Assembly: GCA_963705305.1 (NCBI GenBank)
Contig: OY970067.1
Span: forward strand, 4,608,001 to 4,672,000
Direction of reading: 5' to 3'
Length of the DNA: 64,000 bases
Source: an uncultured Methylomirabilota bacterium
GTDB taxonomy: Bacteria; Methylomirabilota; Methylomirabilia; Methylomirabilales; 2-02-FULL-66-22
Positions 8,714 to 14,600 of the stretch are shown here, one piece after another (within the stretch, counting starts at the first letter, position 1; every line of letters begins with the position of its first letter). Under the pieces are notes generated by a model that was given only the letters and a program-made list of their open reading frames with translations, was not told where the DNA came from and did not search any database. A program made the position numbers and the translations under genes.

Positions 8714-9673
8714 TCAGGTTTTGGGTCTTTTGGCCTCCTCTGTTTCTTTTGGCGGTGAAAGACCGAAGGCCAGCCCGCGCAGCTTCCACAGCCAGGCTGC
8801 CAGTCTTGACGTGGGATGCTGGTGCGTAGCGCGATATGTCACCACCACCGCTTCTGGGTTGGCCAGGGCCTTCCGGAACTCCAGAGCGCTCGGGAATCGA
8901 TCACGGGGATTGCGCTCGAGCGCATGCAGGATGATCTCCTCAAGCTGGGGGGAGATGTCGCGCCGCAGGTGGCTCGGCGGAATCGGATTCTTCAGAATCT
9001 TCGCTTGCAGCACAGCGTACACGTTTCGGCCCGTAAAGGGAACCTTGCCGGTCAGCATCTCGTACAGGATGACCCCCAGGCTGTAGGTGTCTGTGCGCGC
9101 GCTCCCGCGCTGTCCCTTGATCTGCTCGGGTGCCATATAGTTGGGCGTGCCGACCGGCTGCGACAACCCCGACCAGGTCATCCTGCGCTGGGATGCGTCG
9201 AAGGCAATGCCGAAGTCCATAAGCTTTATTCTCCCCGGCGGCAGGATCATGAGGTTGTCGGGCTTGAGATCACGATGCACCACATTGCGATCGTGCAAAT
9301 AGACGAGGATGTCTGCAATCTGAATCGCGAAATCCAGCGCCCGCGCAACGGGGAGTCGGCGTTCGCGCTGCAGCCGGGTGCTCAGCGGCTCCCCCTCCAC
9401 ATACTCCATCACGAGATAGAGGCGGCTCCGCTCCTGCACACGATAGGTCTTGATGATCCCCGGGTGATCGAGCGAGAGCCCGATGTTCTCCTCACGGATG
9501 AACCGTTGATGGAAGACCATGTCCCCCGCGTACTGAAGGTACGGCACCTTCAACACAGCGGTGCGGTCCTGCTTGGTATCGCGGGCACGAAATACCGTGG
9601 CCATGCCGCTGCGGGCAATGATGTCGAGAAGCTGAAACTGGTCGAGCATCTGTCCGGGAGCAGGCTCAGCCAT
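8714..9673 (-). CDS. Hanks-type Ser/Thr protein kinase, cytoplasmic
   Basis: SGMATVFRA, VLK, HRDLKPDN, DFG, GTPNYMAPE motifs; no PASTA domain or clear TM. Confidence 0.93.
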   Translation of the reverse strand: MAEPAPGQMLDQFQLLDIIARSGMATVFRARDTKQDRTAVLKVPYLQYAGDMVFHQRFIREENIGLSLDHPGIIKTYRVQERSRLYLVMEYVEGEPLSTRLQRERRLPVARALDFAIQIADILVYLHDRNVVHRDLKPDNLMILPPGRIKLMDFGIAFDASQRRMTWSGLSQPVGTPNYMAPEQIKGQRGSARTDTYSLGVILYEMLTGKVPFTGRNVYAVLQAKILKNPIPPSHLRRDISPQLEEIILHALERNPRDRFPSALEFRKALANPEAVVVTYRATHQHPTSRLAAWLWKLRGLAFGLSPPKETEEAKRPKT

Positions 9674-9947
9674 CCCAGCCCTCAGTTGCCGAGAAGTTCT
9701 CCGGTATCCAACGCCCAGGCAACCATGGGTGCTGGCATGGAGGTTGGCCGAGCAGCCACCCCCGCCGTCTGGCGACGACGCCACGACTGCCGCCCCCGGG
9801 TGGCGTGGACCGGCTGGGCTGCCCCCCAGGTCGTCCACAACGCGTCGCGGGTGCGGAGATCACGGACCACCCTCGGGTCGGCGCCCCGCCCGCAAACCTA
9901 ATCGAAAGCAGGAAGCTTGTCAATCGATGGACAGGCCGGCGACAGGC

Positions 9948-10793
9948 TCAATGCCAGAATCTCCACCAAGACGCCGGCGGGGGGGAGGCAGAACAGGAGA
10001 TGACCGCAGCCACCTGCAGGCTCATATTGTCCGGACCTCCGGCGTCCTGAGAGCGCTGGACAGCGGCCTTGCAGGCGGCTTCCGGGCGATTCTCGCGGAG
10101 CAGCGTGATCAGCTCGGCCTCTGATAGCACGTCATGAATGCCATCGCTGCATTGGAGCAGCACGTCTCCCGGCCGGATGTCCATCTTGAGGGTGTCGATG
10201 GAGGTAATCAGGTCGTGACCCAGGTAGTTGGTGAGCTTGTGCCGATCGGGATGCATCCGTGCTTCCTCTGGCGAAAGGATGCCGTATTCCATCTGCTCCT
10301 GCACCGAGGTGTGGTCTTTTGTGAGCTGGGAGAGCGCGCCATCGCGGAACAGGTAGAGCCGGCAATCTCCAATATGCGCTGCGACCAGTGTGCGGCCTAG
10401 CACCAGGCTGGCGGTGAGCGTCGTCCCCATGCGGTACAGCTCGGGGACCGTGATGCTCTTCTGGTAGATCTCCAGGTTCGCCTGCTGCACTGCACGCTTG
10501 AGGTTCCGCACCGGAGGCCCTGCGTCCACGGCGGCGGCCATCTCCCGGGCCAGTGCCTCGAGTGCGAGCGCGCTGGCGACCTCTCCGCTGCTGTGCCCGC
10601 CAAGGCCGTCGGCCACGGCAAAGAGGAACCCCTCCCCGTGCGGCCAGAACCCCAGGGCATCCTCATTCCCGTCACGCACGGAGCCGACATCTGTCAGCTG
10701 GAAGAACTCAATCTCAATGCTGCTGGTTTTGAGGTCCATCAGCGTGTGCACATGAGGATCCTGCATGGCCGGAGGTCGATAACCCGGACTCAT
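9948..10793 (-). CDS. PP2C/PPM-family Ser/Thr phosphatase
   Basis: NEDA, VADGLGG, HIGDCRLY, CSDG and GGPDN motifs; ATGA overlap with the permease stop. Confidence 0.93.
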   Translation of the reverse strand: MSPGYRPPAMQDPHVHTLMDLKTSSIEIEFFQLTDVGSVRDGNEDALGFWPHGEGFLFAVADGLGGHSSGEVASALALEALAREMAAAVDAGPPVRNLKRAVQQANLEIYQKSITVPELYRMGTTLTASLVLGRTLVAAHIGDCRLYLFRDGALSQLTKDHTSVQEQMEYGILSPEEARMHPDRHKLTNYLGHDLITSIDTLKMDIRPGDVLLQCSDGIHDVLSEAELITLLRENRPEAACKAAVQRSQDAGGPDNMSLQVAAVISCSASPPPASWWRFWH

Positions 10794-13047: not shown

Positions 13048-13386
13048 ATGAAGAAGGTGGACATCATTATTCGCCCCCATAAGCTGGAAGAGGTACGGGG
13101 CGCTCTCACGGCGGTCGGTATTCGGGGCGTGACCGTGACGGATGTCAAGGGTTTCAGCCGCCAGGGGGGAACGACAGGTTCTTCTTGCGGCGACGAAGGT
13201 GGCCCCACCTTCAACCTCAAGGTTCGCCTGGAGGTCCTGATCCCCGACGCGATGCTGGAGCGGATCATGCAATCGGCGGGCGAGGCGGCCCGAACCGGTC
13301 GGCTCGGCGACGGGAAGATTCTGGTGACCGATGTACTCAACGTCGTGCGGATCCGCACCGGTGAAACAGGGGACGCCGCCATTTGA
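13048..13386 (+). CDS. glnB: PII family nitrogen regulatory protein (GlnB/GlnK-like) with divergent T-loop
   Basis: 112 aa; KGFSRQ, K58, TGRLGDGKI, RIRTGE motifs; GGAGG RBS. Confidence 0.9.
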   Translation: MKKVDIIIRPHKLEEVRGALTAVGIRGVTVTDVKGFSRQGGTTGSSCGDEGGPTFNLKVRLEVLIPDAMLERIMQSAGEAARTGRLGDGKILVTDVLNVVRIRTGETGDAAI

Positions 13387-13643
13387 AACCTGGCGCACGG
13401 GCGGGGTACTGGCGCCAGCCGGCCCTCTCACGGACTCCAAAATGAAGGGGGGCAGGAAGGCGGCGGCGCCCTCTGGATAGCCGAACAACTCGCCGATCTC
13501 TCCGGGCGGCGGATCGGCGGGGCCACACAGTGAACCCGGAAGTGGATCCAGGCGGACGATGCCGTCTATCCTCCGGATACAGGCCCCTGCGATCAGCAGG
13601 CGCCTTCCTAGGCGTAGCATTGATGCAGACAAAGGGAGAAGAC

Positions 13644-14600
13644 ATGGTGAAAAGACGATTGGCACCGGGTGTTCTGCTGGGTCTGGCATTGGCAGTTCTG
13701 CTGACCGTACCGGCATGGGCCGAAGAGCCGAGCGGGCCGAACACCGGCGCGCTGTCGCTGACCGTCAATCTCAACTTTCCGACCTCCTACTACTTTCGCG
13801 GCATCGCCCAGAACAACGCCGGGTTTCAGTTCGAGCCGTACGTGGAACTCAAGGCCAACGTCTATCAAGGCAACGACAAAGACGTGATAAGCGGTGGCTA
13901 CTTCAAGGTCGCCGGATTTTCACACTTCCAGTCCACGGCGGCACCGATGAATACGAACTACTACGAGCAGGATGTCTACCTCTCCGGCGGGCTGGTCTTG
14001 CTGAAGCGCGCCACTCTCGAATCCGGCTGGAATCTTTATACCTATCCCGGCATCGGGTCATCCGCCCAGGTCCAGGAAGTCTACGGCAAGGTGAGCTTCG
14101 ACGACGGCGGTCTGTGGCCGTTCACGCTGCCGGGCAAGCAGGACTTTTCACTCTCGCCCTACGTGCTGGTGGCCGGAGAGACGTCGGGCGGAGCGGACGG
14201 CGCCGCCCCCTTTGGCGGCCACAGGGGTACCTACATGGAGTTCGGGACCGATCCTGGCTACTCCGTAGATTTCAACAAGGATTGGTCCGCCCGTTTCCAC
14301 CTGCCCTTCGTCCTCGGCCTCAATCTCCACGACTACTACGAGGTCGCCACGACCACGGGCCTGGAGGACAAGACCTTCGGTTATGCCGATCTGGCGCTGG
14401 CGGTCGATATTCCATTGAAATTCATGCCTGCGCGCTACGGCAAGTGGACCTTCACCACCGGACTGCATGGATTGTGGTTGGGCCCCACCGCCAAGCTGTT
14501 GGACGGTCCACCCTCCAATAACGCCCTGAACGCTGTGAACGTTACCGGCGGCAATGGCTTCCAGGTGTGGGGGCTCACAGGGGTCACAATCGAATACTGA
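13644..14600 (+). CDS. Outer-membrane beta-barrel, TorF/TIGR02001-like putative porin
   Basis: Signal peptide ending AWA; SYYFRGIAQ motif; aromatic-rich strands; C-terminal Tyr. Confidence 0.7.
   Translation: MVKRRLAPGVLLGLALAVLLTVPAWAEEPSGPNTGALSLTVNLNFPTSYYFRGIAQNNAGFQFEPYVELKANVYQGNDKDVISGGYFKVAGFSHFQSTAAPMNTNYYEQDVYLSGGLVLLKRATLESGWNLYTYPGIGSSAQVQEVYGKVSFDDGGLWPFTLPGKQDFSLSPYVLVAGETSGGADGAAPFGGHRGTYMEFGTDPGYSVDFNKDWSARFHLPFVLGLNLHDYYEVATTTGLEDKTFGYADLALAVDIPLKFMPARYGKWTFTTGLHGLWLGPTAKLLDGPPSNNALNAVNVTGGNGFQVWGLTGVTIEY

Follow-up and report, generated by a model that had tools for sequence, protein, structure and literature searches.

A permease, phosphatase and kinase cassette beside a GlnK-type PII with an eroded T-loop at a dismantled GlnK-AmtB locus in Methylomirabilota

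To our knowledge, the post-translational control of nitrogen uptake in bacteria is understood almost entirely through the PII proteins. In cyanobacteria, PII is phosphorylated at Ser49 and dephosphorylated by the PP2C phosphatase PphA. Among eukaryotic kinases, the plant CIPK23 acts on AMT1, and SPAK/OSR1 act on the N-terminus of NKCC1, a transporter of the APC fold. The control of transporters by reversible PII phosphorylation is described as established in cyanobacteria in a 2023 review, which lists AmtB, Amt1, NrtABCD, UrtABCDE and SbtA as PII targets and gives LacS as the sole bacterial case of direct transporter phosphorylation (PMC10710835). In the GlnK-AmtB pair, the T-loop of PII plugs the AmtB channel and is uridylylated at Tyr51 by GlnD, as three papers describe (PMC10710835, PMC3198391, PMC3612183), and a fourth reports that yeast Npr1 acts on the nitrogen transporters Mep2 and Gap1 (PMC6249832). 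Here we present an analysis of a 64,000-nucleotide stretch, the window (G000:C1:4608001-4672000), of the 5.65-Mb single-contig genome G000 of an uncultured Methylomirabilota bacterium, in which a PII gene stands divergently from a cassette of an APC permease, a PP2C phosphatase and a Hanks-type Ser/Thr kinase. On balance, we favor the reading that two nitrogen-starvation units are combined in this locus as a mosaic, that a self-standing permease module, with phosphorylation as its probable switch, took over from the GlnK-AmtB pair, and that the surviving PII persists as a constrained sensor without T-loop function.

Comparison with the described systems reveals both likenesses and differences. 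The window PII is orthologous to the GlnK of a GlnK-AmtB pair found in its own genus, with which it shares the promoter, the protein body and the effector-binding residues, and glnD is present in the genome; however, the operon lacks amtB, the PII lacks Arg47 and Tyr51, and an APC permease with a kinase and a phosphatase lies alongside. As in the cyanobacterial phospho-PII system, a PII and a PP2C occur in one nitrogen-regulated context, but position 49 is Asp, the PP2C is a generic Stp1-like enzyme, and PP2C and kinase travel with the permease and not with PII. The cyanobacterial phosphorylation site lies in the context RYRGSEY, which is not matched here. The proposal that a cytoplasmic Ser/Thr kinase would act on a terminal segment of a nitrogen permease and thereby switch it recalls the kinase-controlled transporters of eukaryotes, whereas the system proposed here is prokaryotic and operon-encoded and has a dedicated PP2C. 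A full-text literature search, which yielded mostly abstracts, returned no APC permease with a PP2C and a kinase and none with a fused PII, in agreement with an initial reading of the window from its letters alone (hereafter the sequence-only reading), which knew of no description of the arrangement. What is new here is the within-genus comparison, which places the cassette in a GlnK-AmtB locus, finds the pair dismantled in both carriers, and finds the T-loop selectively released.

In all, 40 related genomes were searched and their loci fetched and annotated; the unpublished genome G028 is counted only in this search and in the tally of permease orthologues, and none of the conclusions depends on it. 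In six genomes of the same genus (G020, G006, G005, G012, G011 and G007), a solute-binding protein gene adjoins a nifA-like gene that is followed by PII and amtB, the PIIs being 61-71% identical to that of the window. Where the contig continues (G020, G005 and G011), a gene for an ANTAR response regulator comes next and then a porin gene facing ntrC-ntrB. The order nifA-like, PII, amtB recurs in metagenome contigs L131-L133, the only three close relatives that a metagenome scan with the window PII gave, and in G015 the nifA-like and PII genes are followed by an ABC importer instead of amtB. Tyr46, Arg47 and Tyr51 are kept in all ten of these PIIs, and the glnK orthologues from loci without the cassette carry RGSEY. 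In total, glnK-amtB adjacency was found in nine related loci and is absent from the window, which bears out the earlier proposal that an APC permease occupies the place usually taken by AmtB.

In the window, the kinase, PP2C and permease genes, together with their promoter, occupy the space from the nifA-like stop codon to the old upstream element of glnK. The upstream element is somewhat degraded relative to the orthologous loci; the glnK promoter itself, GGGCACGCTGCTTGC, has one mismatch to the sigma-54 consensus, and its GGCA/CTTGCC core is invariant in 8/8 orthologous glnK upstream regions. The only amtB of G000 lies 2 Mb away, directly upstream of glnD and with no PII gene beside it (G000:C1:2655558-2660768; L047, L048); with an identity of 35-38% to the AmtBs linked to glnK, it is a paralogue. 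The ANTAR protein had no match anywhere in the genome. Gene order and promoter conservation identify the window PII as the GlnK of a conserved glnK-amtB operon, with promoter and upstream element ancestral, and the cassette as an insertion at a locus from which amtB and the ANTAR gene have been deleted in G000.

The PII itself is a bona fide family member (PF00543, 85.9 bits against a cut-off of 25), with GlnB and GlnK as its best PDB matches (E 2e-29), although it scores below the cut-offs of the NCBIfam equivalogs (111 vs 202 bits). Its effector-binding elements are kept, namely the B-loop TGxxGDGKI, the C-terminal RIRTGE, Q39 and K58, with Ser in place of Gly37. The T-loop, which reads GFSRQGGTTGSSCGDEGGPTF, is not canonical: positions 46, 47, 49 and 51 are Ser, Cys, Asp and Gly, in place of Tyr46, Arg47, Ser49 and Tyr51. 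It carries T42, T43, S45 and S46, of which Thr43 is universal in PII proteins. Nonsynonymous (dN) and synonymous (dS) substitution rates were computed against G020 for the T-loop (codons 37-54) and for the remaining 94 codons. The T-loop gave dN 0.60 and dS 0.56 (dN/dS about 1.06) and the body dN 0.114 and dS 0.756 (dN/dS 0.15), while among the AmtB-linked orthologues themselves the T-loop ratio is 0 to 0.2. These rates show that only the T-loop has been eroded and that the rest of the protein has stayed under purifying selection. A compensated frameshift was ruled out as the origin of the odd T-loop: window and orthologous DNA can be aligned in frame and differ by point substitutions. Short, near-identical DNA contigs from run X1, one of them across the T-loop, match the window, though this run may be the source sample and not independent; none of them bridges the junctions of the locus. 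The genome also encodes a second PII, a canonical glnB adjoining glnA.

Erosion of the T-loop extends beyond this genome. Among the 120 nearest PII homologues, 20, including the window protein, form a subclade marked by Asn56, and at least one of Tyr46, Arg47 and Tyr51 is lost in 12 of these 20 against 0/100 of the others. Tyr51 is missing from eight of the 20, replaced by G, H, H, H, P, F, F and L, and the eroded loops differ from each other, sharing no new Ser or Thr. Such variety speaks for relaxed constraint and not for a new conserved site; the sequence-only reading had taken the loss of Tyr51 as a sign of a phosphorylated PII, which this pattern does not favor. Three further relatives appear to hold both an Asn56-subclade PII and the permease, as suggested by matching source contigs only: P0006 with permease P0125 (both from contigs of 4267 bases), P0015 with P0129 (both 4054) and P0249 with P0128 (both 9589), each pair from the same source. 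These permeases are 88-92% identical to that of the window, and the T-loop of P0015 is still canonical.

Of the 20 other species in the genus, only G013 was found to have an orthologue of the permease (87% identity), and there the GlnK-AmtB pair is broken as well. The locus starts with the solute-binding protein gene and a nifA-like gene whose homology switches frame once. Behind the conserved upstream element and an intact sigma-54 site, all that is left of glnK is an in-frame relic of 8 codons, MKKGEAAI* (L221 9700-9730; G013:C26), amtB lies in pieces over several frames with no open reading frame (ORF) above 311 aa, and the ANTAR gene is split over two frames, followed by an intact porin gene. 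On the same contig, about 12 kb with alpha-2-macroglobulin and transglycosylase genes separate the porin gene from an intact cassette (kinase, PP2C and permease, all reversed), a TIM-barrel gene and intact, likewise reversed ntrC and ntrB. A search of G013 for the PII family returned one divergent, partial match only. The trio is intact while glnK is deleted, and the trio therefore works without this GlnK. In both cassette-bearing species, then, the GlnK-AmtB pair has been broken, each time in a manner that complements the other, whereas the nine glnK-amtB loci without the trio keep it.

The cassette is distributed far beyond this genus. A scan of species-representative genomes returned 335 permease relatives, of which the best 80 loci (51-79% identity) were sorted by tblastn with the window proteins, neighbors being counted only within the fetched flanks. 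These 80 loci span about ten phyla in all, among them Binatia, Gemmatimonadota, Chloroflexota, Bacteroidota, Ignavibacteriota, Spirochaetota, Armatimonadota, Omnitrophota, Nitrospirota and Planctomycetota, as well as methanogens (Methanoregulaceae). In 64 of the 80 the permease gene is followed by PP2C and kinase genes, and in three by a PP2C gene cut by the contig end. In eight, permease and PII domain form one in-frame fusion with a free PII next, two have no enzymes and a free PII within 450 bp, and three are cut too short to tell. The fusion was confirmed by Pfam in the three loci tested (L066, L082 and L086), and neither PP2C nor kinase was found in any of the eight fusion loci (0/8). Of the two enzyme-less loci, L059 belongs to a genome that also holds a full trio and L128 has a second, trio-type copy beside it. 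Every informative locus among the best 80 has an apparent regulator next to the permease, and PP2C/kinase and fused PII never occur together in them.

Nitrogen-assimilation genes dominate the surroundings of the 67 cassette loci. The commonest neighbor is glnA, present in the flanks of 44, and any of PII, AmtB, GlnA or a sigma-54 activator in those of 50; an Ignavibacteriaceae locus reads permease, PP2C, kinase, glnA, amtB, PII, and a spirochaete locus amtB, PII, permease, PP2C, kinase. In 10/75 loci a sigma-54 site precedes the permease gene by 20-63 bp, compared with 0/75 on the opposite strand and 2/75 inside the gene. The sequence-only reading had joined the trio to PII in one self-contained system, a dependence contradicted by the 46 of 67 cassette loci that have no PII-family match (tblastn, E<=1e-6) in the fetched flanks. 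Neighborhood counts such as these show a cassette that is widespread and PII-independent, in nitrogen-assimilation neighborhoods.

The fusions form a single branch (support of 100 in the Shimodaira-Hasegawa-like approximate likelihood ratio test, SH-aLRT) inside the trio-type diversity, next to the clade of the window, and the branch falls within a supported group (95) with that clade and a Binatia clade. The fused permeases belong to the same subfamily as the window permease (62-68% identity), their neighborhoods hold a NifA-like activator, a porin, amtB and glnA, and their PII domains are likewise Tyr-less, with Gly/Ser/Asp-rich T-loops. The window permease differs in ending after its last helix, with PP2C and kinase genes next, and the window PII comes from the GlnK line; the PII lineages of the fused domains and of their partners, 44-48% identical to it, are separate. 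One sister clade has thus swapped the two enzymes for a PII domain on the permease itself. Beyond this genome the permease family has ties to PII signaling, seen in the eight fusions, the two enzyme-less copies with a free PII and the PII genes between PP2C and kinase in Methanoregulaceae.

The permease is an APC-superfamily protein of a highly conserved subfamily (51-92% identity across bacteria and archaea) without a characterized member, and no characterized subfamily profile reaches its cut-off; 7988 of the 8000 scored permease candidates had E<=0.001. Its best PDB sequence match is at E 2e-4. A structure model (pLDDT 69, pTM 0.74) has the APC (LeuT-type) fold and matches AdiC, ApcT, BasC, KimA and NKCC1 at 13-17% identity; neither profiles nor fold matches decide the substrate. 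Thr18 belongs to the invariant motif TLGLTG, where transmembrane segment TM1a begins on the cytoplasmic side; in the model it falls in the first turn of this helix (residues 15-27). Position 18 is Thr in 66/67 kinase-linked permeases and V, L or A in 8/8 fused ones, and the enzyme-less paralogues of L059 and L128 retain Thr18. A predicted complex of the permease with one PII copy scored 0.00, which weighs neither way.

Both enzymes have the hallmarks of their families. The kinase translation contains the Hanks catalytic motifs AVLK, HRDLKPDN, DFG and APE, and the phosphatase the PP2C metal motif DGLGGH; the latter scores 207.5 bits against the Stp1-like model NF033484, below its cut-off of 230. 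Neither carries a sensor domain of its own in Pfam. A C-terminal membrane anchor, without any other domain, is present in 58/66 kinases; in the window's own clade the anchor is lost, and the C-terminal tail of the window kinase is amphipathic (hydrophobicity score 0.53).

The preferred reading can be set out as follows. One unit is the ancestral sigma-54 operon nifA-like, glnK, amtB, (ANTAR), porin, here minus amtB and the ANTAR gene; the other is the inserted, self-contained cassette of sigma-54 promoter, APC permease, PP2C and Hanks kinase. The permease would import some nitrogen compound under nitrogen limitation and would be switched by its own kinase and phosphatase through reversible Ser/Thr phosphorylation, probably on the cytoplasmic N-terminal TM1a segment at Thr14/Thr18. 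Such a switch would do the job that the fused PII domain does in the sister clade and that GlnK does for AmtB, and the cassette may thereby have rendered the GlnK-AmtB pair dispensable. The surviving PII would still bind ATP/ADP/2-oxoglutarate and may act, with parts of its surface outside the T-loop, on regulators such as the NifA-like protein or NtrB, and it would not be a dedicated kinase substrate. The earlier claim that kinase and phosphatase modify this PII and/or the permease would hold, in this light, for its second half: a pair dedicated to PII did not emerge, and the most likely target is the permease itself. It is favored because it is the constant partner of both enzymes, because a PII domain welded behind the last membrane helix replaces those enzymes, because 58/66 of the kinases are membrane-anchored, and because Thr18 occurs in kinase-linked and not in fused permeases.

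Several points weigh against this reading. Phosphorylation of the permease is a prediction from sequence comparison, and glutamine synthetase would be an equally open candidate target, glnA being the most frequent neighbor. The contrast at Thr18 is a single evolutionary event because the fusions form one clade, and the permease tree, rooted at its midpoint, was obtained by a quick search and carries SH-aLRT values as its only support. Loss of the kinase anchor in the window's clade weakens the co-location argument for this genome. PII genes are strongly enriched near the trio: a PII-family match lies in the flanks of 21/67 cassette loci at E<=1e-6 (14/67 at E<=1e-10 with at least 80 aa aligned), and in 6/7 Methanoregulaceae loci (L108, L110, L113, L121, L124 and L125) at least one PII gene stands between PP2C and kinase, so that PII could be target or partner there. 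The link between cassette and broken pair is n=2 vs n=9, with only two carrier species in the genus. Finally, the frame breaks of G013 could partly be assembly errors, as G020 also shows split genes; the in-frame deletion of its glnK cannot be one.

Among the alternatives, the idea that this PII is a relic, left without a client by the loss of amtB and merely beside an independent cassette, so that the apparent system is an accident of insertion, is unlikely but deserves the most attention. A T-loop dN/dS of about 1, the many ways in which key residues were lost across the subclade, the degraded upstream element of the promoter and the completed loss of glnK in G013 are all what it would predict. 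Yet the body of the protein is held at a dN/dS of 0.15, its B-loop, RIRTGE, Q39 and K58 are intact, an undamaged -24/-12 element and ribosome-binding site still precede an unbroken ORF, and the downstream porin gene has been retained. Also to be considered is a permease that mainly senses, with kinase and phosphatase relaying its state to proteins such as glutamine synthetase, NtrB or a sigma-54 activator. The glnA genes that follow the trio within the flanks in 44/67 loci, the want of a sensor domain in either enzyme and the tail anchors that would hold most kinases beside the permease speak for such a transceptor or scaffold, which we nevertheless regard as rather improbable: in G000 glnA is elsewhere, adjoining glnB, the sister clade's swap of the enzymes for a PII domain behind the last helix argues for control of the permease itself, and its extreme conservation fits a working transporter.

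We give still less credence to a PII phosphorylated in the cyanobacterial style, in which kinase and PP2C would modify its Ser/Thr-rich T-loop in place of GlnD and PII would gate the permease and/or the GAF domain of the NifA-like protein. The T-loop has indeed lost Tyr51 and does offer T42, T43, S45 and S46; the two units diverge from sigma-54 promoters; the PII genes near or inside the cassettes listed above, the matching contigs that suggest joint travel of permease and PII subclade in three further relatives, and the unanchored kinase of the window's clade would all suit it. But G013 retains the trio with glnK deleted, over two-thirds of the cassette loci (46/67) lack a PII match, the PIIs beside the trio in the nearest clade (L051-L055 and L063) have canonical Tyr51 T-loops, the eroded loops of the Asn56 subclade share no new Ser or Thr and Thr43 is found in all PIIs, and the cyanobacterial Ser49 position is Asp here while the orthologues without the trio carry RGSEY. 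A similarly small chance attaches to a re-tuned PII, whose Gly/Ser/Thr/Asp-rich T-loop, stripped of Tyr51 and Arg47, would now partner the APC permease and be phosphorylated by the anchor-less cassette kinase; if true, uridylylation would have been switched to Ser/Thr phosphorylation outside the cyanobacteria, on a T-loop much like those of the permease-fused PII domains.

The features of the locus, taken from an ORF listing and profile scans, are collected in the table.

Table. Positions of genes and regulatory elements within the window
Feature	Position	Strand	Basis
Solute-binding protein	5155-6651	-	ORF listing and profile scans
NifA-family sigma-54 activator (GAF, AAA+, HTH)	6900-8585	+	Pfam and NCBIfam, synteny
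Hanks-type Ser/Thr kinase, 319 aa	8714-9673	-	Pkinase PF00069, 170.5 bits
Untranslated gap between PP2C and kinase, 274 bp	9674-9947	-	ORF comparison with orthologues
PP2C Ser/Thr phosphatase	9948-10793	-	PP2C_2 PF13672, 64.2 bits; PF00481, 45.7 bits
APC permease	10790-12370	-	AA_permease_2 PF13520, 73.9 bits; PF00324, 66.3 bits
Sigma-54 -24/-12 element of the cassette, TGGCACCCGCCTTGC	12456-12470	-	Perfect TGGCAC-N5-TTGC
Palindrome ACAACA-AGAA-TGTTGT	12583-12598		Partial conservation in G013
Ancestral upstream element of the glnK promoter	12793-12836	+	Conservation in orthologous loci
Ancestral sigma-54 -24/-12 element of glnK	12938-12952	+	Core invariant in 8/8 aligned loci
GlnK-orthologous PII, 112 aa	13048-13386	+	P-II PF00543, 85.9 bits
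Outer-membrane porin-like protein, signal peptide	13644-14600	+	Profiles below cut-off; synteny
Terminator-like hairpin	14632-14654	+	3' of the porin gene
ntrC	14842-16305	-	Pfam and NCBIfam, synteny
ntrB	16302-17477	-	Pfam and NCBIfam, synteny

The gene calls of the sequence-only reading, both of its sigma-54 sites, the Tyr51-less PII and the ATGA overlap of permease stop and PP2C start, read directly as TCATGAGT, are all present, and profiles recovered the NifA-like gene and ntrBC (14842-17477) on either side of the block. Two start positions were corrected. The permease starts at ATG 12370 behind GGAGG, the start at 12664 being rejected as upstream of the promoter, and the kinase likely starts at ATG 9673, from which the G013 orthologue aligns, and not at GTG 9838. 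A small ORF of 85 aa between PP2C and kinase (9666-9923, minus strand) was rejected as a gene, having no conserved counterpart.

The view of the block as a nitrogen-regulated unit was supported. Both elements are sigma-54 promoters by sequence, and rpoN is present in the genome. That of the cassette belongs to a set of just 14 perfect sites across the 5.65 Mb and precedes the ATG of the permease by 85 bp; the G013 cassette has a perfect site at the same distance from its permease. Sites with at most one mismatch number eight in the window against 3.7 expected, a count reached by 2 of 100 shuffles, and no sigma-70-like promoter was found at 8500-14900. About 115 bp upstream of the cassette promoter lies the palindrome, a candidate activator site with a function suggested by sequence; no NifA upstream site (TGT-N10-ACA) occurs within the intergenic region.

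The NifA-like gene, directly upstream of glnK throughout the genus, encodes a protein that scores 604.5 bits against TIGR01817 (cut-off 528.85), and its true start is probably downstream of 6900. No nifH was found in the genome, the best profile score being 32.5 bits against a cut-off of 394, and this NifA-family gene is therefore probably not nif-specific here. Just upstream of its ORF, a sigma-54-like site with one -12 mismatch, TGGCACGGAAGCTGC (6867-6881, plus strand), would permit auto- or NtrC-dependent control of the activator. The porin gene is the last of the ancestral glnK operon and is followed by the terminator-like hairpin; ntrC and ntrB are convergent with the operon, an arrangement kept by synteny across the genus. 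Of the porin, earlier called TorF-like, the porin-like character and signal peptide stand, while the TorF name is a lead only, with 31.6 bits against a cut-off of 47.15 for TIGR02001 and no Pfam match.

Additional observations were made at the related loci. The ANTAR regulator (receiver and ANTAR domains) between amtB and porin, as in L038 11949-12566 and L040 7610-8461 and lost in G000, implies that some part of the genus's nitrogen regulon is controlled by antitermination. In the importer of G015 (L044 11322-13370), the membrane component has N-terminal HEAT repeats, an unusual fusion of HEAT_2 and BPD_transp_2. The gap between PP2C and kinase is untranslated and about 100-330 bp long in most loci (for example L052 10334-10563), and its position is where PII genes sit in the archaeal versions. 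In Methanoregulaceae there are up to three such intervening PIIs (three in L121 10627-12005 and in L113), with a shortened T-loop, a T-loop insert of about 40 residues and an ordinary length; in the seventh locus of this family, L127, the kinase directly follows PP2C and the cassette adjoins anfO and anf nitrogenase component genes. Loci of the nearest trio clade have, directly upstream of the permease and between it and a canonical PII gene, one or two ORFs that are about 250-270 aa long and without a Pfam match (L052 6942-7932; L053 7170-7985). The Chloroflexia contig L128 (20-3113, minus strand, and 8001-9551, plus strand) has two permease copies, one with PP2C and kinase genes and the other followed by PII genes.

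The findings from this comparison show the fate of a PII T-loop once its channel partner has vanished. They also provide a testable case, in that two carrier species dismantled GlnK-AmtB in opposite ways, of a eukaryote-like phosphorylation switch that may stand in for PII control, and the locus would thereby point to an unstudied, phosphorylation-based control of nitrogen uptake.

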